NCBI GenBank assembly: GCA_041640635.1 | Contig: JBEPZX010000001.1 | Coordinates: forward strand, 64,001-128,000 | DNA from: Aquificaceae bacterium | GTDB taxonomy: Bacteria; Aquificota; Aquificia; Aquificales; Aquificaceae | Direction of reading: 5' to 3' | DNA length: 64,000 nt | In this document: positions 1,443 to 8,909 of the stretch, piece by piece | Layout: each line of letters begins with the position of its first letter | How positions within the stretch are numbered: the stretch's first letter is position 1 | Notes under the pieces: generated by a model | What the model was told of the DNA's origin: nothing | Seen by the model: only the letters and a program-made list of their open reading frames with translations | Database searches by the model: none | Translations under genes and position numbers: made by a program

Positions 1443-2417
1443 ATGAGTCAAACTCTAGCAGAAAAATTCTACTTTCTTATGAAGTTAGGAAGGGAGTTAG
1501 AGCTCAGAGCCAAAGAGGAGTATTTGAAAGGAAATATTAGTGGTTTTTTGCATCTGGATATTGGACAGGAAGCTGTAAGCGTGGGAGCTGTTGTAGGCTT
1601 TGGTAAGGGGGACCTGTTTTGTCCATACAGGGAGCACGTTTTGGCTTTGGCAAGGGGAATGGATCCAAAGCTCATAATAGCAGAGCTCTTTGGTAAGTAT
1701 ACGGGGGTATCAAAAGGTAAAGGTGGTTCGATGCACCTTTACGAGCCAAAGTTGGATTTTTACGGTGGGAATGCTATCGTTGGAGCTCATCTTTCTCACG
1801 CTGTTGGTGCAGCTTACGCAAGAAAGTTAAGAAACGAGAAAGCGGGTGTTTTAGTTACATTTGGGGATGGTGCAACAAACGCCGGTAGCTTCTTTGAAGC
1901 TGTAAATTTGGCTGTAGTTTGGAAAGTTCCCGTCCTTTTTCTCTGCATAAATAATTACTACGCCATAGGCACGCGTATTGATAGGGTTTCTGCTTTTAAG
2001 GACACTTACCTTAAGGTAAAGGATTATATGCCCGCTGTTCAAGTGGATGGAATGGACGTTTTTGCCGTATATGAAGCTGTGATTGAAGCCAAAAAGTACC
2101 TTGAAGAGTATGGAAAACCTTACTACATAGAAGCTATAACGTACAGGTTCGAAGGGCACTCAATGGCTGACAAAGGTGATTACAGATCACCAAGGGAATT
2201 GGAGATGTTTAAAAAGAAAGATCCTATCGAGAACTTAAAGAAGGTAGCTTTGGAGAAGGGGTGGTTAACTCAGGAGCAAGTAAACCTAATGGATAGCAAA
2301 ATTGCTCAAATTGTGGAAGAGTCTGTAGAGTTTGCCTTGAGCTCTCCTGAGCCACCACCTGAGGAGCTATACAGGGATATATACTGCGGTAGTGTATGCG
2401 AAGATATAGGAGTATAA
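1443..2417 (+). CDS. pdhA: Pyruvate (2-oxoacid) dehydrogenase E1 alpha
   Basis: GFLHLDIGQEA, GKGGSMH, TPP motif GDGA..N, YRFEGHSMAD. Confidence 0.9.
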   Translation: MSQTLAEKFYFLMKLGRELELRAKEEYLKGNISGFLHLDIGQEAVSVGAVVGFGKGDLFCPYREHVLALARGMDPKLIIAELFGKYTGVSKGKGGSMHLYEPKLDFYGGNAIVGAHLSHAVGAAYARKLRNEKAGVLVTFGDGATNAGSFFEAVNLAVVWKVPVLFLCINNYYAIGTRIDRVSAFKDTYLKVKDYMPAVQVDGMDVFAVYEAVIEAKKYLEEYGKPYYIEAITYRFEGHSMADKGDYRSPRELEMFKKKDPIENLKKVALEKGWLTQEQVNLMDSKIAQIVEESVEFALSSPEPPPEELYRDIYCGSVCEDIGV

Positions 2418-2420
2418 ATC

Positions 2421-3395
2421 ATGCTTTACAGAGAAGCTTTAAACCTGGCATTGGATCATGCTATGGAATCGGATCCAAGCGTGGTAATTTTGGGGGAAGA
2501 TGTGGGCTTTTATGGGGGTAACTACAAAGTAACGGATGGGCTTTACGCAAAGTATGGGGAGTCAAGGGTTATAGATACTCCTATAGCGGAAAATTCCATC
2601 GTAGGAACGGCGATTGGTATGGCTATGGTGGGGTTACGCCCTGTGGCGGAGATAATGACGGCAAACTTTGCCATGCTAGCTATGGACCAGATAGTAAATA
2701 ACATGGCAAAGCTTAGGTATATGAGCGGTGGAAAGATAAGCCTTCCCATGGTGGTTAGGATGCCACAGGGTGTGGCAAAGCAACTTGCAGCTCAGCATTC
2801 CCAAAGTTTGGAGCATATGTTTGCAAGCGTGCCGGGAATATACGTCTTTTGCGCATCGGATTCCATAACAGCTTACCATGGTTTGTTAAGCGCTATAAGA
2901 TTCGATGACCCTGTTATATTTTTGGAACACGTTGCTTTATATGCCTGGGACTTTCCTTTCGAGTATCTTAAAAATTTCGATCCCTTCAGTGCAAGGATTG
3001 TAAAGGAAGGTAAAGACGTAACCGTTGTTTCTTACCTAAAATCCTTACACGATACGCTAAAGGCTTGCGAACAACTGGAAAAGGAAGGTATATCCTGCGA
3101 AGTGATAGACCTTGTATCTTTGCGTCCCATCGATTTTGAAACCATATACAACTCGGTAAAAAAAACAAAAAGGTTGGTTGTGGTGCATGAAGCTCCAAAA
3201 AGCTTAGGATTAGGTGCGGAAATTAGCGCAAGAATTAGCGAAGAACTCTTCTACTACTTGGATGCACCGCCTTTGAGAGTTTGTGGAGAGGAAGTCCCAA
3301 TACCCTATAACAGGAATCTGGAACTTATGAGTATACCTACGCCTGAGAAAATATACAGAGCTATTTTGGATTGGGGGAAACAAAATGGACTATGA
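2421..3395 (+). CDS. pdhB: Pyruvate dehydrogenase E1 beta
   Basis: GEDVG, DTPIAE, AQHSQS, transketolase C-terminal domain. Confidence 0.92.
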   Translation: MLYREALNLALDHAMESDPSVVILGEDVGFYGGNYKVTDGLYAKYGESRVIDTPIAENSIVGTAIGMAMVGLRPVAEIMTANFAMLAMDQIVNNMAKLRYMSGGKISLPMVVRMPQGVAKQLAAQHSQSLEHMFASVPGIYVFCASDSITAYHGLLSAIRFDDPVIFLEHVALYAWDFPFEYLKNFDPFSARIVKEGKDVTVVSYLKSLHDTLKACEQLEKEGISCEVIDLVSLRPIDFETIYNSVKKTKRLVVVHEAPKSLGLGAEISARISEELFYYLDAPPLRVCGEEVPIPYNRNLELMSIPTPEKIYRAILDWGKQNGL

Positions 3396-4641
3396 GGTTC
3401 TCATGCCCCAGTTTTCTGATACAATGGAGAGGGGGAAAATAGTAAAGTGGCTAAAAAGAGAAGGGGAGTATGTGGAAAAAGGGGAAACGATAGCAGAAAT
3501 TGAAGCGGAAAAAGCCATAATGGAACTCCAAAGTTTTAGAAGCGGTATTTTGAAGAAAATCCTTCATGGTGAAAATGAAGAGGTAAAAGTAGGTAAAGTG
3601 ATAGCGATAATAGAAATAACTGACAAACCGGTGCAAACAAAGGAGACACCACCTAAGGAAGAGCCTAAAAAAATGCCCGAAGAAAAGCCAAAGGAAACCT
3701 TTGTAAAAGAGGAAAGGAAAGAGTTAAAAGAGGTAAAAAAATCAATGGCTCCTGGTTTTGCCTCACCTTACGCTAAGGTTTTGGCTAAAGAACTTGATTT
3801 GGACATAAGCGAATTTCAAAAGATGGGTAAAATACCATCGCCTGCGCATGCAAAGGACATAGAGAAGTTTTTGACAGAAAGATACTTTACACCAAGGGCT
3901 TTAGAAATCATAAAGGACTACCAGATAGACCCCAAAGATGTAATCTCTTACTTTGGAGAGAGGAAAGTAAACGAAGATATGCTAATTACCTATATAGAAA
4001 ACAATGAAATTCCCAAAAAAATTTCTGTATCTTTCACCCAAAAGACTCTTATAGAGAACTTAACCAAGAGCATACAAAACCCTCAATACCGCATAACGGA
4101 CAAAATTAACGCTTCCTTTATTCCTTACATAGAAGGTATCACCTACACCCACTGGTTTATAAAAATCATAGGCGACTCTATGATGTACTTTGACAGGTTA
4201 AGGGCTAAACTGAAAGGGGATAGTTATCTTATAAGTCCCAATGCAAATGTAGGTGTTGCTGTAGGCATTGGCGAAGAGCTTTACAATGTAGTGATAAAAA
4301 GGGTAAATAAGAAGACACTAAAGGAAATATCGGAGGAGCTTCAAACTTTAAGACAGAAGGCTCAGGAATCGAGACTCTCACCTGAGGATATAAAAGGTGC
4401 TACACTAACCATATCCAACCTTGGTATGTTTGGTATTATGCAATTTGATGCCATTTTGCCTTTTGAACAAGCTTGTATAGTAGCCATAGGCGCCATAGAT
4501 GAAAACAAAACCTTTTACGCTACCTTTACCTTTGACCATAGGATAGTTAACGGTTTAACGGGGGCTTTGTTTGTTAAGCATGTGAAGGAGAGATTTACAG
4601 ACAAGGCTTACTTAAAACTTCTCTCTAAGGGGGCAAAATGA
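3385..4641 (+). CDS. pdhC: Dihydrolipoamide acyltransferase E2
   Basis: Lipoyl domain (EAEKA), Pro/Lys/Glu linker, subunit-binding domain ASPYAK, TISNLG, DHRIVNG. Confidence 0.9.
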   Translation: MDYEVLMPQFSDTMERGKIVKWLKREGEYVEKGETIAEIEAEKAIMELQSFRSGILKKILHGENEEVKVGKVIAIIEITDKPVQTKETPPKEEPKKMPEEKPKETFVKEERKELKEVKKSMAPGFASPYAKVLAKELDLDISEFQKMGKIPSPAHAKDIEKFLTERYFTPRALEIIKDYQIDPKDVISYFGERKVNEDMLITYIENNEIPKKISVSFTQKTLIENLTKSIQNPQYRITDKINASFIPYIEGITYTHWFIKIIGDSMMYFDRLRAKLKGDSYLISPNANVGVAVGIGEELYNVVIKRVNKKTLKEISEELQTLRQKAQESRLSPEDIKGATLTISNLGMFGIMQFDAILPFEQACIVAIGAIDENKTFYATFTFDHRIVNGLTGALFVKHVKERFTDKAYLKLLSKGAK

Positions 4642-5882
4642 AGGAATACGATGTAGTAATAATTGGAGGAGGGCTAGCTTATACGGGTGCTTACCTTTTA
4701 AGAAATGCGGGGCTAAAGGTAGCGGTAGTGGAAAAGGAAGAGAAAAACATAGGTGGGGTTTGTTTAAATAAGGGGTGTGTTCCTACCAAGCTTTACATCA
4801 AGGAAGCAAAAACCTTATACCAAGCCAAGCACTCAAAGGTCGCATCTTTTAACCTTCAGGTAAACTTAAAGAATCTTTATGCTTACAAGGAAGAGCTTAC
4901 AGCCAGACTAAGGCAAGACATACTCAAGATGCTAAAAGGTGTAGATGTATACTTTGGCTACGGTGAATTAATTGAGCCTTACACGGTGAAGGTGGACAAA
5001 GAGATTTTAAAAGCAAAGCACGTGATTATAAACACGGGCAAAAGGCAAGCTGAATCTCAAGAAGGTTTTTTAACATCCGATGACCTTTTGAATCTTCAAG
5101 AAGTGCCCAAATCCTTAAGCCTAAAAGGTAACGATCCTATACTTTACGAATTTGCTTGTATGTTTTCTGTGTTTGGCTCTCAGGTGAGCATTTTCACAGA
5201 AGGCAAAGACTTGGATTTTATGCACCCTAGTATAAAAAGCAGGTTTTTAAAGATGATAAAAGCTTTAGGAGTGAACGAAAAGAAAGAAAGTGAGTTTGAA
5301 AAATCGGAGCTTAATGTGCTTTTTGAAAAGAGAGTTCCAAACTCCGAAGCCGTAAAGCTCCAAGACATACAAAAGGATAAAGAGGGACACATCATAGTAG
5401 ATGAGAATTTTGAGACATCGTTAAAAAATCACTATGCCGTAGGTGATGTAAACGGTCTTTTTGAACTAGCTCACGCTGCGCGTATACAATCCTTAATTGT
5501 AGCCAACAGAATACTAGGCAAAGAAAAACTATTTGTTAATTTTAAAAACATTCCATACGTTTTGTATACTTTGCCCATGTCTTATGCAAAGGTTGGCATC
5601 ACCCATTATGAGCTCAAAAGTAAAGTTATACAATACCAAGAAAAATTGATAAGTTTTAGACCTTACGCCATAGGTAGCATACAAAACACGGAGGATGGTT
5701 TGGTAATTCTTTACTTTGACAAAAGGAACTTTCTAATAGGTGCTGAGGTCCTAAGTGCTATGGCTGAGGAAGTAATTGGCAGTGTTACGTGCATGCTAAA
5801 TGCCGAGTTGGATTTGAAGTTTATTTCCCAAATGGTTTTGCCTCACCCAACGGTGAGTGAGGTTCTTGTGTTGGGTCTATAA
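4638..5882 (+). CDS. lpdA: Dihydrolipoamide dehydrogenase E3-like protein with degenerate NAD-binding domain
   Basis: IIGGG, GGVCLNKGCVP, AVGDV, LAHAA and HPTVSE present; GNDPILYE replaces GxGxxGxE; only 414 aa. Confidence 0.8.
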   Translation: MKEYDVVIIGGGLAYTGAYLLRNAGLKVAVVEKEEKNIGGVCLNKGCVPTKLYIKEAKTLYQAKHSKVASFNLQVNLKNLYAYKEELTARLRQDILKMLKGVDVYFGYGELIEPYTVKVDKEILKAKHVIINTGKRQAESQEGFLTSDDLLNLQEVPKSLSLKGNDPILYEFACMFSVFGSQVSIFTEGKDLDFMHPSIKSRFLKMIKALGVNEKKESEFEKSELNVLFEKRVPNSEAVKLQDIQKDKEGHIIVDENFETSLKNHYAVGDVNGLFELAHAARIQSLIVANRILGKEKLFVNFKNIPYVLYTLPMSYAKVGITHYELKSKVIQYQEKLISFRPYAIGSIQNTEDGLVILYFDKRNFLIGAEVLSAMAEEVIGSVTCMLNAELDLKFISQMVLPHPTVSEVLVLGL

Positions 5883-5891
5883 TTTTTTGAC

Positions 5892-8800
5892 ATGGACAAA
5901 AGGGAGTTAGTGAAGGAATATTTAAGCAGTATAGCGGGAAAACCTGAAGATACTATAAGGCATAATTTTTTACGTTTTCTTGAAAAGCTTTTCCCTCAAA
6001 TTGAACTCCAGGAGATAGAACTGGAAAAGTATATACGTGGCATACGTGCAAAAAGTGGATATGCGGATGCCATAGTAGGGCACATCATTTTTGAGTTTAA
6101 AAGAAAGTTAGATGAGCATAGCAGAAATGTTGGTAAAGAAGAGCTAAAAAAGTACATCAAAAACCAAGAAAGACCTGAAAGTGTGTTTGGTTTTTTAACG
6201 GATGGAAAAGTTTTTGAGGTTTACGCTTTAAAAGGGGAAGAACTTGAGAAGTTAAGTGAGTTTAGGATAGAAGAGGACAAAGCAGAGGAAATATACCAAA
6301 AGTTTGATATCTACCTTTTTACAGAGAAAAACATAAAGCCCACCTCTGCTGACATTGCTAGAAGATTTGGGCTTGGGAGCATTCTCTATTACAGGCTCAA
6401 GAGTGCTTTAGAATCTGCCTTTAAGAGTTTGAAAGACAGTTCTGTGTTGTTTACTAAGTTTTACGAGTGGAGAAATCTTTTGTCCATTGTTTACGGTTCT
6501 GGTGAGGTAGGAGAGGAAAGTCTTTTTATTACACACACTTACTTGGCAACCTTTGCAAAGATTTTGTCTTTTGTTGCAATAGAAAAAAGAGCCCCTAACA
6601 GTGAGCAAGAACTAAAGGAAATTATAACAGGTAAAGCTTTTGAGAAGTTAGGCTTTGAAAACTTTGTAGAGGATGACTTTTTCAGTTGGTTTGTGGATGA
6701 AAATGTTTGGCAACCGTTTTATCCTTTGCTTCTTTCTATGGCGGACACGCTTATAAGTGCTTACAACCTTTCTTACATAAACGAGGACATTTTGAAAGAA
6801 ATATACCAAGAAATGGTAGATCCAGAAACAAGGCACGATTTGGGTGAGTACTACACACCCGATTGGTTGGCTGAGCTGTTACTTATAGAAGCAGGCTTTC
6901 ATGAAGCGGAAGATAAATCCCTTTTGGACCCTTCATGCGGGTCTGGAACTTTCCTTCTGAATGCTATAAAGCTACTCAAAAAGCAAGGGCTAAAGGGGAA
7001 AGAGCTTGTAGATTTTGCTCAAAAGTTTTTAGCAGGTATGGATGTCAATCCTTTGGCTGTGATTATTGCAAAAACTAACTTTGTGCTTGCTTTGAGTGAG
7101 GATTTAAAGGATTACAGAGGTAAGCTCTACATTCCCATATTCATGTGTGATAGTCTAAATGCAAGAGGTGCATACTCTGAGCCATACGTGAAAATACCAA
7201 TACCTTTAGAAGAGTTTAGGAAAATTAAACCGCTGTCTTCTCAAACACCTTCTACCTTTTCTTTGCCTTTGGATATAAGCCAAGAGAAGATGGAAGAGAT
7301 CTTGGACATGCTTATAGAGTATGCAGATCCAAAAATGGACGAAAGCACAGCAAAAAGAGGTTTCAAGTCCTATCTGGAAAAATTGCAGTTGACTCCCGAT
7401 GAAATTACCCACTGGATGTCCAATCTAACCTTAATGAGATACTTACTCAAAGAGCCTCCCACAGACACCATATGGAAGTTTGTTTTAAAGAACGCCCACA
7501 GACCAATAATTTTTAGCAAAAACAAGTTTGCCTTTGTAGTAGGTAATCCACCATGGCTTACATACAAAGATATCAATAGAAAGGAATACCAAGAAAGAAT
7601 ACGACATTTAAGCATAAAAAAGTATAAACTCATTGAAGGAAAGGACACCCACTTGGTAACCCACTTGGAGCTTGCCACTGTGTTTTTCGCATTAAGTGAA
7701 GACCTTTACCTAAAGAACAATGGAACATTGGCTTTTGTAATGCCAAGGAGCATTATGAAGGACAGCAAGCACCACAAAGCATTTCAGGAAAAATACTTAA
7801 TGAAATCGGAAAAAATAATAGACTGTTCGGATGTGAAACCCCTTTTTAACATTCAGAGCGTTTGCGTAATCTACAAAAAGGGAGCTCAAACAAAACCTCA
7901 TGTGCCTATTCTAAAGCTAAAAGGAGTCTTGCCTTACAAAAACATGGACTTAAGTAGTGCAAGTGAACTTTTTGAAAAGTCAGAGGGCACTTACAAACCC
8001 GCAGAAGGAGTGGGAGAAAGTGTATATCTTAAGGAAGTTTTCCAAGGAGCAACCTTAGTTCCAAGAAGCTTTTGGTTTGTAAAACCTAAGGAGAGGGGGA
8101 CTCATTTAGAGACTGATCCTGTAGCACAAGAGCAAGGGAAAGAGCCATGGAAAAGTATAAAACTTGAAGGTGAGGTAGAAGAGGAGTTCTTATATGCCAC
8201 GCTTCTTTCTACGGAGCTTTTCCCCTTTTCCTATAGAAAACTTTCTTTGGTAATAATACCCTTAAAGAATGGAAAACTTTTGAACTCTCAAAAAGCTTAC
8301 GCTGAAGGACGTCCAAAGCTTGGAAAGTGGCTTTCTCAGGTAGAAGAGCATTGGAACAAACTCGCAAAAAGGACTTCGGAGAGAGTAAAAACTCCATACG
8401 AACGATTGGACTTTCAAGGTCTTTTCTCCAGACAAAAACTATCAGGCGTAGTAAAACTACTCTATAACAAAAGCGGAGCTAGTATAAGCTCGTGTGTAAT
8501 AAATACAAATCAGATTAAGGAAGTTTACGGTTTGAACGTCCAAGGCTTTATAGCAGAACATAAAACCCACTACATAGAAACTTACAACGAGAAGGAAGCT
8601 CATTACCTCTGTGCAATTCTCAACTCAAATAAAGTAAATGAATTCATAAAGCCTCTTTTAGGTGAAAGGGATATTCACAACAGACCCTTTGAGTATCTAC
8701 CCATTCCAAGATTTGATGAAAGGAACGCTGTTCATTTGGAGCTTGCAGAACTTAGTATGCTTTGCCATCAAAAGGTGAAGGAGAAAATGAAGGATGAAAG

Positions 8801-8909
8801 AGTTCTAAACTTAAACTATATCAAACTAAGAGACTACATTCGCAAGGAACTTGTAAGGGAAGAGCTAAAGGAAATAGATAAATTAGTAGGCGCTTTGCTT
8901 GGGATTTAG
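5892..8909 (+). CDS. Type IIG-like restriction-modification fusion (endonuclease + N6-adenine methyltransferase + target recognition region)
   Basis: N-terminal ADA..IFEFK (PD-D/ExK-like) and LTDG; GEYYTP, LLDPSCGSGTF (motif I), GNPPW (motif IV); 1005 aa. Confidence 0.85.
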   Translation: MDKRELVKEYLSSIAGKPEDTIRHNFLRFLEKLFPQIELQEIELEKYIRGIRAKSGYADAIVGHIIFEFKRKLDEHSRNVGKEELKKYIKNQERPESVFGFLTDGKVFEVYALKGEELEKLSEFRIEEDKAEEIYQKFDIYLFTEKNIKPTSADIARRFGLGSILYYRLKSALESAFKSLKDSSVLFTKFYEWRNLLSIVYGSGEVGEESLFITHTYLATFAKILSFVAIEKRAPNSEQELKEIITGKAFEKLGFENFVEDDFFSWFVDENVWQPFYPLLLSMADTLISAYNLSYINEDILKEIYQEMVDPETRHDLGEYYTPDWLAELLLIEAGFHEAEDKSLLDPSCGSGTFLLNAIKLLKKQGLKGKELVDFAQKFLAGMDVNPLAVIIAKTNFVLALSEDLKDYRGKLYIPIFMCDSLNARGAYSEPYVKIPIPLEEFRKIKPLSSQTPSTFSLPLDISQEKMEEILDMLIEYADPKMDESTAKRGFKSYLEKLQLTPDEITHWMSNLTLMRYLLKEPPTDTIWKFVLKNAHRPIIFSKNKFAFVVGNPPWLTYKDINRKEYQERIRHLSIKKYKLIEGKDTHLVTHLELATVFFALSEDLYLKNNGTLAFVMPRSIMKDSKHHKAFQEKYLMKSEKIIDCSDVKPLFNIQSVCVIYKKGAQTKPHVPILKLKGVLPYKNMDLSSASELFEKSEGTYKPAEGVGESVYLKEVFQGATLVPRSFWFVKPKERGTHLETDPVAQEQGKEPWKSIKLEGEVEEEFLYATLLSTELFPFSYRKLSLVIIPLKNGKLLNSQKAYAEGRPKLGKWLSQVEEHWNKLAKRTSERVKTPYERLDFQGLFSRQKLSGVVKLLYNKSGASISSCVINTNQIKEVYGLNVQGFIAEHKTHYIETYNEKEAHYLCAILNSNKVNEFIKPLLGERDIHNRPFEYLPIPRFDERNAVHLELAELSMLCHQKVKEKMKDERVLNLNYIKLRDYIRKELVREELKEIDKLVGALLGI

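Follow-up and report, generated by a model that had tools for sequence, protein, structure and literature searches.

A dihydrolipoyl dehydrogenase-like protein with a degenerate NAD site in a 2-oxoacid dehydrogenase operon of Aquificaceae

Results

A four-gene operon ending in an E3-like gene

The window analysed here is a 64,000-nucleotide stretch of a contig from a hot-spring bacterium of the family Aquificaceae. It contains four overlapping or abutting genes in the order E1α, E1β, E2 and a fourth, last gene whose product is related to dihydrolipoyl dehydrogenase (E3 or Lpd) and is called here the E3-like protein (Table 1). The E1α translation shows the GDG...NN pattern, and its score for the pyruvate dehydrogenase profile TIGR03182 (PDH_E1_alph_y) is 361.9 bits, under the cut-off of 393.85. 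The C-terminal 78–91 residues of E1β are 74–83% identical across the loci of 15 relatives. E2 is the sole PF00198 match in the genome, and its residues K43, H385 and N389 are invariant in 8/8 orthologs. The start codon of the E3-like gene overlaps the E2 stop codon in an ATGA (4638–4641), so that the frame, which is open over its 414 codons as the earlier note had claimed, is translationally coupled to E2. The operon is present in one DNA metagenome run; no RNA data containing it were listed.

The peripheral-subunit-binding domain (PSBD), which binds E3, is divergent in E2. The only part recognisable as such is its first helix, where the PF02817 match covers profile positions 2–20 of 36. A second PSBD at about residues 170–210 had been read by eye; the Pfam profile search gave no PF02817 match between residues ~165 and ~215, and this stretch is now considered a conserved helical segment. 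Docking of the E3-like protein on E2 is treated here as presumptive, since the E3-binding segment of E2 is only half recognisable.

Table 1. Genes and sequence features of the operon, in window coordinates.
Feature	Position	Strand	Evidence
E1α, 324 aa, TPP-dependent 2-oxoacid dehydrogenase subunit, pyruvate type	1443..2417	+	PF00676, 268 bits
E1β, 324 aa	2421..3395	+	Transket_pyr and Transketolase_C; NF006667, 360 bits (cut-off 321)
E2, 418 aa: lipoyl domain with K43, Lys/Glu/Pro-rich linker, divergent peripheral-subunit-binding segment, catalytic domain with DHRIVNG	3385..4641	+	Biotin_lipoyl and 2-oxoacid_dh
E2 residues 125–143, part recognisable as PSBD (first helix)	3757..3813	+	PF02817, 21.1–21.6 bits (cut-off 23.7)
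AGGGGG, ribosome-binding-like site for the E3-like gene, inside the E2 end	4628..4633	+	5–10 nt upstream of the ATG
E3-like protein, 414 aa, Lpd-fold flavoprotein disulfide oxidoreductase with degenerate NAD site	4638..5882	+	Translation, Pfam, model
FAD P-loop IIGGGLAYTG, residues 8–17, one residue shorter than canonical	4659..4688	+	G10 and G12 invariant, 80/80
Redox-active disulfide C42-L-N-K-G-C47	4761..4778	+	Both Cys invariant, 80/80
G164-N-D-P-I-L-Y-E171 where GxGxxGxE is expected	5127..5150	+	Alignment
F-E-K231-R-V-P-N where A-x-G-R-x-P-N is expected	5322..5342	+	Residues 229–235
H403-P-T-V-S-E408, catalytic His-Glu pair of the interface domain	5844..5861	+	H403/E408: 27/27 clade, 19/19 sister group, 33/34 canonical Lpds

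The E3-like protein has an Lpd fold with intact FAD and disulfide motifs

The AlphaFold2 model of the E3-like protein is of high confidence (pLDDT 96.5, pTM 0.92). Comparison with canonical Lpd by structure prediction, which the earlier note had proposed, returned the Lpd fold: the top Foldseek matches are all Lpds, with TMq values of 0.91–0.93 to solved structures. The protein exceeds the cut-offs for PF07992 (103 bits) and PF02852 (45.5 bits) and scores 245.7 bits with the Lpd profile TIGR01350, whose cut-off of 408.8 is not reached. It shares with dihydrolipoyl dehydrogenase (EC 1.8.1.4; TIGR01350; structures 1EBD, 2EQ6 and 5U8V) the four-domain fold, the CxxxxC disulfide, the flavin Lys-Glu pair, the C-terminal HPxxSE and the position as last gene of an E1-E2-E3 operon. 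Unlike Lpd, it is devoid of the GxGxxG motif, the Glu at the end of β2, the Gly of xxGRxPN and the β-meander of the NAD domain.

Residue conservation was assessed in an alignment of 80 proteins comprising the clade of the E3-like protein (27), its sister group from Campylobacterales (19) and canonical Lpds (34). The motifs quoted in the earlier note are all found in the translation: IIGGG at residues 8–12, CLNKGC at 42–47, AVGD at 267–270, LAH at 277–279, HPTVSE at 403–408 and FEKRVPN at 229–235. No variation is seen among the 80 proteins at C42, C47, K51, E171, G269 or D270. By sequence, the FAD-binding motifs are kept, namely the N-terminal GxG loop, the acidic end of β2 (E32, which is Glu in 79/80 proteins and Asp in one canonical Lpd) and the GD motif. 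The FAD loop reads GGGLAY where canonical Lpds have GxGPGGY; the sister group, in which the NAD motif is intact, has the same one-residue shortening. Position 14 of this loop is Ala in 26/27 clade members, Asn in 19/19 sister proteins and Gly in 34/34 canonical Lpds.

The NAD site is replaced and the NAD domain shortened

In the Rossmann fingerprint, the second Gly must be free of a side chain for the pyrophosphate to approach the helix. Alignments to solved Lpd and to the canonical Lpd of the same genome agree that GxGxxGxE is replaced in the E3-like protein, as the earlier note had stated, with G-N-D-P-I-L falling exactly on G-x-G-x-x-G. The motif KGNDPILYE that it quoted is real; the range 5127–5150 given for it corresponds to GNDPILYE (residues 164–171), the preceding Lys being encoded one codon before, at 5124–5126. 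The loss is shared by all 27 orthologs, none of which keeps GxGxxG; close orthologs with an intact motif, which the earlier note had named as a finding that would speak against its reading, were thus looked for and did not turn up. Their loop reads G-[DN]-D-[PHL] (27/27), with G164, D166 and E171 in every protein, D165 in 26 (Asn in the window) and P167 in 24. The third-Gly position is occupied by Ala, Leu, Gly, Ile or Val, and by Ala, Leu, Ile or Val in 24/27.

The second glycine motif is altered as well. Position 231 is Lys or Arg in 27/27 clade members, compared to Gly in 18/19 sister proteins and in 30/34 canonical Lpds, while E171 and R232-x-P-N are retained in the clade. The Glu that ends β2 in 27/34 canonical Lpds is replaced by Phe, Thr, Leu or Ala at position 187, and an acidic residue stands one position further, at 188, in 26/27 members. 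The Pfam NAD(P)-binding unit Pyr_redox (PF00070) scores 20.5 bits with the E3-like protein, under its cut-off of 22.

The shortening of the protein is concentrated in this domain, again as had been claimed: the median length from P157 to R232 is 74 residues in clade members, compared with 95 both in the sister group and in canonical Lpds. All 27 orthologs are without about 21 residues of the β-meander of this domain. This loss is also observed by DSSP when the E3-like model is compared with a sister model, and in the TIGR01350 matches of the orthologs, which are split near model positions ~231–272. The Rossmann core is nevertheless intact in the model, at pLDDT above 90 (β159–164, α168–179, β182–187, α197–209 and β212–216). 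A shortened NAD domain is not diagnostic alone, as 20 of the 22 listed representatives of less than 432 residues keep the motif; a 409-residue paralog in the relative G050 reads GSGASA at the loop.

The E3-like protein is under purifying selection and co-inherited with E1 and E2

Purifying selection maintains the E3-like protein, which is inherited together with E1 and E2. NG86 estimates of dN/dS were 0.11–0.125 for the seven closest pairs among the clade relatives of the window's protein (dS 0.15–0.74); values for the NAD-like domain were 0.08–0.20. Mean pairwise identity in the clade is 53% in the NAD-like domain and 64–65% in the other domains. The nearest full-length relatives of the window's protein are 60–61% identical to it, and of the 72 positions at which the other 26 orthologs all agree it retains 68, the four departures being E19Y, L38I, D165N and Y258F.

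The order E1α-E1β-E2-E3-like was found in 8/9 loci of 16 kb, whose flanks are unrelated, and E2 lies immediately upstream of the E3-like gene in 16/19 loci of relatives. Among 90 genomes of the family, 21 carry the E3-like gene and 22 carry E2; 20 have the pair, and each of the 3 cases with a single gene falls at a contig end. In the complete genome G083, 288 kb separate the two genes. Comparison of the relatives' loci revealed no conserved partner gene beside the operon that is common across genera. A 200-residue FAD-binding-like ORF follows the E3-like gene in only 3/9 loci.

The earlier note had also considered that a second Lpd elsewhere might do the work while this copy decays. A second Lpd does exist, and it may supply the NAD link: a search of the genome identified a canonical Lpd of 468 residues on the same contig, ~55 kb upstream of the operon, with a TIGR01350 score of 417.7 bits (cut-off 408.8). 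Its gene is solitary, preceded by a superoxide dismutase gene and followed by mutL, and is tied to no single complex. A canonical Lpd is likewise present in 5/5 complete relatives that carry the E3-like gene, and it is found across the family, genomes without the operon included. The proposed decay is contradicted: the loss of the NAD site does not represent decay, because all 27 orthologs carry it, dN/dS is ~0.11 and 68 of 72 positions are kept.

Origin and rarity of the clade

In a quick IQ-TREE search, the E3-like clade was monophyletic (SH-aLRT 100), with a stem of 1.26 substitutions per site. In the same tree the terminal branch of the window's protein measures 0.46, versus a median of 0.17. 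The sister clade (SH-aLRT 100) consists of short E3 proteins from a homologous operon of Sulfurovum and other Campylobacterales MAGs (P0030–P0048; loci L039–L059). These proteins share with the E3-like clade the operon order and the GGGLxY FAD loop, and the E1β subunits of the two operons are 60–63% identical. Unlike the E3-like clade, they have GxGAIG in 19/19 cases and the full 95-residue NAD-domain span. An Arg, His or Lys follows β2 in 18/19 of them, which suggests that they may use NADP. Since the sister operon retains GxGAIG, the loss of the NAD site dates to the stem of the Aquificaceae clade; it arose later than the split from the sister operon that bears the NAD motif. L060, from a Bacteroidales MAG, turned out to be a canonical Lpd.

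At 50% identity the clade is covered by a single representative out of 1.84 billion, and its acidic loop was found in none of the 148 next-best representatives. Using the NAD-like domain alone (residues 146–240) as query, we obtained only 7 proteins, all from the same clade. Three other Lpd-like proteins have a degenerate NAD loop, P0071 ('GSDHME') and P0085/P0087 ('GKSPIA'). CxxxxC and HPxxSE are intact in them, the second Gly is replaced by Ser or Asp, and the next residue is Pro or His. Unlike the E3-like protein, they have a full-length NAD domain (450–457 residues in total) and belong to separate lineages within canonical Lpds. Loops of this kind in Lpd lineages unrelated to the clade raise the possibility that a sealed NAD site evolved more than once.

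Discussion

In 2-oxoacid dehydrogenase complexes, the reduction of NAD+ by E3 is the textbook last step. We tentatively favour, at somewhat less than even confidence, a reading in which the E3-like protein re-oxidises dihydrolipoyl-E2 yet is unable to use NAD(P)+ at the canonical site, its electrons passing to another acceptor. The earlier note had proposed such an NAD-independent complex, and the proposal would be consistent with all the observations made here. The dihydrolipoyl arm of E2 would be re-oxidised through the Cys42-Cys47 disulfide and FAD, the reductive half-reaction being presumably intact. At the N-terminus of helix 168–179, Asp166 and Pro167 would, together with Lys/Arg231, fill the site of the NAD pyrophosphate and thereby keep NAD from docking. 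Flavin electrons may then leave to a quinone, O2 or another small oxidant, or to a housekeeping redox protein; these acceptors are proposed on the grounds that no partner gene accompanies the operon. Ferredoxin, which the earlier note had listed among the acceptors, would be thermodynamically unfavourable downstream of lipoamide, as judged from standard potentials. Extended to the Aquificaceae clade as a whole, the proposal is of a putative pyruvate-type complex whose E3 has a sealed NAD site and sends lipoyl electrons to a non-nicotinamide acceptor (quinone, O2 or redox protein), and we put it forward with a little more reserve.

Other explanations have to be weighed against this one. The E3-like protein may be a non-turnover subunit with a structural, assembly or regulatory role on the E2 docking site, the lipoyl arms being re-oxidised with NAD+ by the canonical Lpd. 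Such an Lpd, unattached to any single complex, is indeed at hand ~55 kb away and in all five complete relatives, and the 5 GcvH-like lipoyl proteins of the genome need it anyway. However, the invariance of C42, C47, K51, E171, H403 and E408 in 27/27 orthologs is unexpected for a purely structural protein, and inheritance along with E1 and E2 is a feature of the E3-like gene, the canonical Lpd being family-wide, also where the operon is missing. We consider this arrangement unlikely, though it deserves to be kept in mind. The GcvH-like proteins, five in number, could also serve as partners if the E3-like protein were a dithiol-disulfide relay that carries electrons from dihydrolipoyl-E2 to another disulfide, on a lipoyl-GcvH/LbpA-type or a thioredoxin-like protein, with FAD in a structural or buffering role. 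The preservation of the disulfide and of the His-Glu pair alongside a dismantled pyridine-nucleotide side would be consistent with such a relay. It is made improbable by the lack of any partner of this kind linked to the operon and by the fact that K51, E171 and the FAD-binding motifs are just as invariant, although a relay independent of the flavin would have no need of them.

Use of NAD+ or NADP+ in a non-canonical mode, on the retained Rossmann core, is a further possibility. The β-α-β core is modelled at pLDDT above 90, no ortholog departs from G164, E171 or R232, 26/27 members have an acidic residue at 188, and a short NAD domain is by itself compatible with an intact motif. The invariant Asp at the second-Gly position, the Lys or Arg in the second glycine motif in 27/27 and the PF00070 score under cut-off argue against it, and we judge this mode quite improbable. 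Decay of the gene in this particular genome would agree with its low TIGR01350 score and its long terminal branch, but is hardly credible for an open, translationally coupled frame that retains 68 of 72 clade-invariant positions in a clade with dN/dS of ~0.11.

Disulfide oxidoreductases whose electron partner is not NAD(P)H are known in a neighbouring family. Ferredoxin-dependent flavin thioredoxin reductases (FFTR) are not known to have NADPH motifs. According to the available part of PMC12796991, FFTR function without NADPH, and they and related thioredoxin-reductase-like flavoproteins use an electron partner other than NAD(P)H, as we propose for the E3-like protein. Unlike it, FFTR belong to the low-molecular-weight thioredoxin reductase family, work in the direction of disulfide reduction on thioredoxin as substrate and are not of the Lpd/glutathione-reductase architecture. 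Because the fold of the E3-like protein is of the Lpd type, FFTR are a functional analogy only and no membership is proposed. Yeast Irc15p is, in the available part of PMC6296175, an Lpd paralog that has likewise lost one half of the classical chemistry; unlike the E3-like protein it lost the redox cysteines, the opposite half, and is not encoded in a dehydrogenase operon. A literature search, which included the available parts of PMC3917532 and PMC1924876, returned no description of an E3 lacking its NAD site or of the Aquificaceae operon.

Since orthologs of the E3-like protein are present in complete genomes of the same family, expression and assay should be straightforward. If the favoured reading is true, the complex would be an NAD-independent member of the 2-oxoacid dehydrogenase complex family, which would be unusual for the class. 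More generally, an E3 that has lost this site yet stays under selection and is inherited along with E1 and E2 points either to a new electron outlet for the complex or to a second, non-redox role of E3. The genome holds two genes for 2-oxoacid:ferredoxin oxidoreductase alpha subunits. The finding would also bear on how pyruvate may be oxidised in microaerophilic CO2-fixers without disturbing the NADH pool.

Operon organization and conservation

E3*, the 414-aa product resembling dihydrolipoyl dehydrogenase (Lpd) and carrying an altered NAD loop, is encoded by the last of four genes arranged head to tail. The nearest NCBIfam models of both E1 subunits are pyruvate dehydrogenase. The E2 stop overlaps the E3* start within ATGA, and AGGGGG lies a short way 5′ of this start. 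The catalytic motif of E2 is DHR-x-x-N-G, not the usual DHRxxDG, in all eight orthologs. The E3-binding helix of E2 is half recognisable; beyond it, residues ~170–210 form another conserved helical segment, which leads into the catalytic domain with no linker between them.

Coordinates of the genes and motif discussed (window numbering unless a contig or locus is given)
Feature	Coordinates	Strand	Domains or family	Remarks
E1 alpha	1443-2417	+	Pfam E1_dh	
E1 beta	2421-3395	+	Pfam Transket_pyr + Transketolase_C	
E2	3385-4641	+	Pfam Biotin_lipoyl + 2-oxoacid_dh	
E3*	4638-5882	+	Pfam Pyr_redox_2 + Pyr_redox_dim	
G164-N-D-P-I-L-Y-E171 of E3*	5127-5150			
1005-aa ORF	5892-8909		N6_Mtase, Eco57I, MmeI-type methylase	directly 3′ of E3*
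Canonical Lpd, 468 aa	G000:C1:12409-13815		Pyr_redox_dim, TIGR01350	genome of the window; ~55 kb upstream of E3*, same contig
GcvH-like genes	G000 contig C4 ~88686-90177 and elsewhere			five, two adjacent
200-aa ORF	L024 10497-11944 (also L025, L028)		N-terminal FAD/NAD(P)-binding Rossmann part of Pyr_redox_2 only	single genus
409-aa Lpd-like paralog	L073 1489-2718			relative G050

In 16-kb stretches from eight relatives and the window, the order E1a-E1b-E2-E3* was found in eight of nine loci, with flanking genes that vary from genus to genus. No partner gene co-travelling with the operon was found among the neighbours in the relatives' loci. A look-up of RNA datasets containing the operon gave no match. 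E2 and E3* are separated by 288 kb in the complete genome G083, where E3* stands by itself with a permease gene on one side and purH on the other. Orthologs of E3* (E below 1e-120) are present in 21 of 90 family genomes, with a fragment in G045; E2 is present in 22, and both together in 20. In the three mismatched genomes (G052, G060, G065) the gene found is at a contig end. Operon structure and co-inheritance suggest that E3* docks on E2, whose E3-binding segment (PF02817) is just half recognisable.

The 1005-aa ORF encodes a type IIG/IIL-like restriction-modification fusion and does not adjoin the operon in the relatives' loci. In three of the nine loci the 200-aa ORF lies ~270 nt downstream of E3* and is followed by a lysyl-phosphatidylglycerol-synthase-like membrane protein.

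The NAD site of E3*

The fold of E3* is that of an Lpd, yet its score falls below the cut-off of the Lpd family model. Dihydrolipoamide dehydrogenases rank first in a phmmer search of solved structures, which aligns E3* 'slslkGnDpiLyE' with 'klvviGaGyiGlE'. The AlphaFold2 model (80 sequences; mean pLDDT 96.5, pTM 0.92) retrieves Lpd structures with Foldseek at TMq 0.91–0.93. However, E3* scores 245.7 bits against TIGR01350 (cut-off 408.8) and 20.5 bits against the NAD(P)-binding unit PF00070 (cut-off 22). The motifs from which the earlier note had proposed intact FAD and disulfide chemistry without an NAD site are all in the translation, where it had placed them.

A search of 5.8 billion proteins yielded 26 further full-length orthologs (396–422 aa, 46–62% identical to E3* in alignment), those with a source name being mostly from Aquificaceae.

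Residues at NAD-site positions (E3* numbering)
Position	E3* clade (n=27)	Sister group (n=19)	Canonical Lpds (n=34)
164	G 27		
165	D 26; N in the window's E3*		
166 (fingerprint's second Gly)	D 27		
167	P 24		
Third Gly	A 12, L 9, G 3, I 2, V 1		
171	E 27		
187 (canonical beta2-end Glu)	F 22, T 2, L 2, A 1		E 27
231 (Gly of xxGRxPN)	K or R 27	G 18	G 30

The median span from P157 to R232 is 74 residues in the clade, compared to 95 in both the sister group and canonical Lpds. DSSP assigns a single strand (225–229) between strand 212–216 and RxPN in the E3* model, and four (224–230, 233–238, 243–246, 248–251) in the corresponding stretch of a sister model; the antiparallel β-meander is therefore gone and the β-α-β-α-β core kept. 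Conservation also extends to the residues facing dihydrolipoamide (Cys pair, His-Glu) and to those at the flavin (FAD motifs, K51-E171); according to an excerpt of PMC1924876, a conserved Glu/Asp and a Lys occur at the flavin in this superfamily. The nicotinamide-dinucleotide side has been remodelled to a constant pattern. The loss of the NAD loop is common to the clade, specific and old.

The earlier note had offered decay as an alternative. On codon alignments from 20 genomes, the NG86 dN/dS of the gene is 0.11–0.125 in the seven closest pairs (dS 0.15–0.74), and 0.08–0.20 in the NAD-like domain. Moreover, the window's E3* matches 68 of the 72 positions invariant across the other 26 (differences E19Y, L38I, D165N, Y258F). 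These values contradict decay, which we consider very improbable; the orthologs share the loss, with D166 in every one, under purifying selection. Mean pairwise identity in the clade is 53% for the NAD-like domain and 64–65% for the other three domains (58% and 62–64% in the sister group). What remains of this domain varies somewhat more freely but is still clearly constrained.

Origin and rarity

The proteins next nearest to the clade (434–441 aa, 32–36% identical) are from Sulfurovum and other Campylobacterales MAGs. Unlike E3*, they retain G-x-G-A-I-G (second Gly in 19/19) and a full NAD domain. Arg, His or Lys follows β2 in 18/19, from which a preference for NADP rather than NAD is possible. 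Their loci have the same gene order, and their E1a, E1b and E2 are 52–58%, 60–63% and 33–39% identical to the window's. That both have this operon is indicative of transfer between Campylobacterota and Aquificaceae. A quick maximum-likelihood tree places the two groups as sisters (SH-aLRT 100) and recovers the E3* clade as monophyletic (SH-aLRT 100); the stem of this clade, at 1.26 substitutions per site, is the longest of the internal branches listed.

When searched against 1.84 billion representatives at 50% identity, the clade profile matched a single full-length protein (680 bits) and one fragment, followed by a protein of the sister type at 290 bits. An acidic NAD loop is absent from all of the 148 next-best representatives; three of them fail G.G..[GA], two reading GAGxIS and one lacking the cysteines. 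The first protein search gave two further lineages of full-length Lpd-like proteins with a degenerate loop and intact cysteines and HPxxSE, P0071 (GSDHME) and P0085/P0087 (GKSPIA; P0087 from a Bacteroidetes MAG). Both are placed apart from the E3* clade in the tree and may represent independent loss of the NAD site. An intact motif is found in some short NAD domains too; what distinguishes E3* is its loop together with both glycine replacements, not domain length. Open-access papers and bioRxiv gave no description of such an E3. The 409-aa paralog of G050 (CLNRGC, GSGASA, HPSLCE) also has a shortened NAD domain, and lies between a small ORF of no known family and a second uncharacterised ORF.

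Possible routes of re-oxidation

The second Lpd that the earlier note had envisaged elsewhere in the genome exists: a Pyr_redox_dim search found E3* and one other gene, a canonical Lpd (GGGAVGAEFA ... AVGRVPN ... HPSLSES; 417.7 bits, passing TIGR01350). It is preceded by a phosphate-transporter operon and a superoxide dismutase gene, and followed by mutL. All five complete relatives with E3* also have one (four pass the cut-off, the fifth scoring 407.1). This enzyme could perform the redox work, with E3* structural or regulatory. We regard this as unlikely; E3* keeps its Cys pair, K51-E171 and His-Glu, and Lpd-like matches with open frames of ~466–485 aa occur in most of the 90 family genomes, many without the operon. 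The same Cys pair could serve a dithiol-disulfide relay, and the remaining Rossmann core could bind NAD(P) in a non-canonical way; the relay appears improbable, and non-canonical binding, set against the fixed replacements at 166 and 231, slightly more so.

The residue at the second Gly of the Rossmann fingerprint has to be free of a side chain for the pyrophosphate to rest at the start of the helix; an Asp-Pro pair is a favoured N-terminal helix cap. In E3*, Asp166-Pro167 would cap helix 168–179 with Lys/Arg231 opposite, and between them they would occupy the pyrophosphate site, so that NAD(P)+ would not bind. The two-electron-reduced enzyme would then have to be re-oxidised by another route. 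As the operon has no accompanying partner gene, the acceptors ranked first are a small oxidant (quinone or O2) or a redox protein with a housekeeping role. Ferredoxin is an unlikely acceptor given its potential below −400 mV, compared to roughly −290 mV for lipoamide.

The genome holds one E2 gene and two 2-oxoacid:ferredoxin oxidoreductase alpha-subunit genes. Its GcvH-like lipoyl-protein genes exceed the needs of the glycine cleavage system and recall the lipoate-binding proteins of sulfur-oxidising Hdr-like systems, as an excerpt of PMC6067878 presents them. Taken as a whole, the reading that we tentatively favour, while holding it somewhat short of probable, is that E3* has its pyrophosphate site filled, does not bind NAD(P)+ and would be re-oxidised by such another route.
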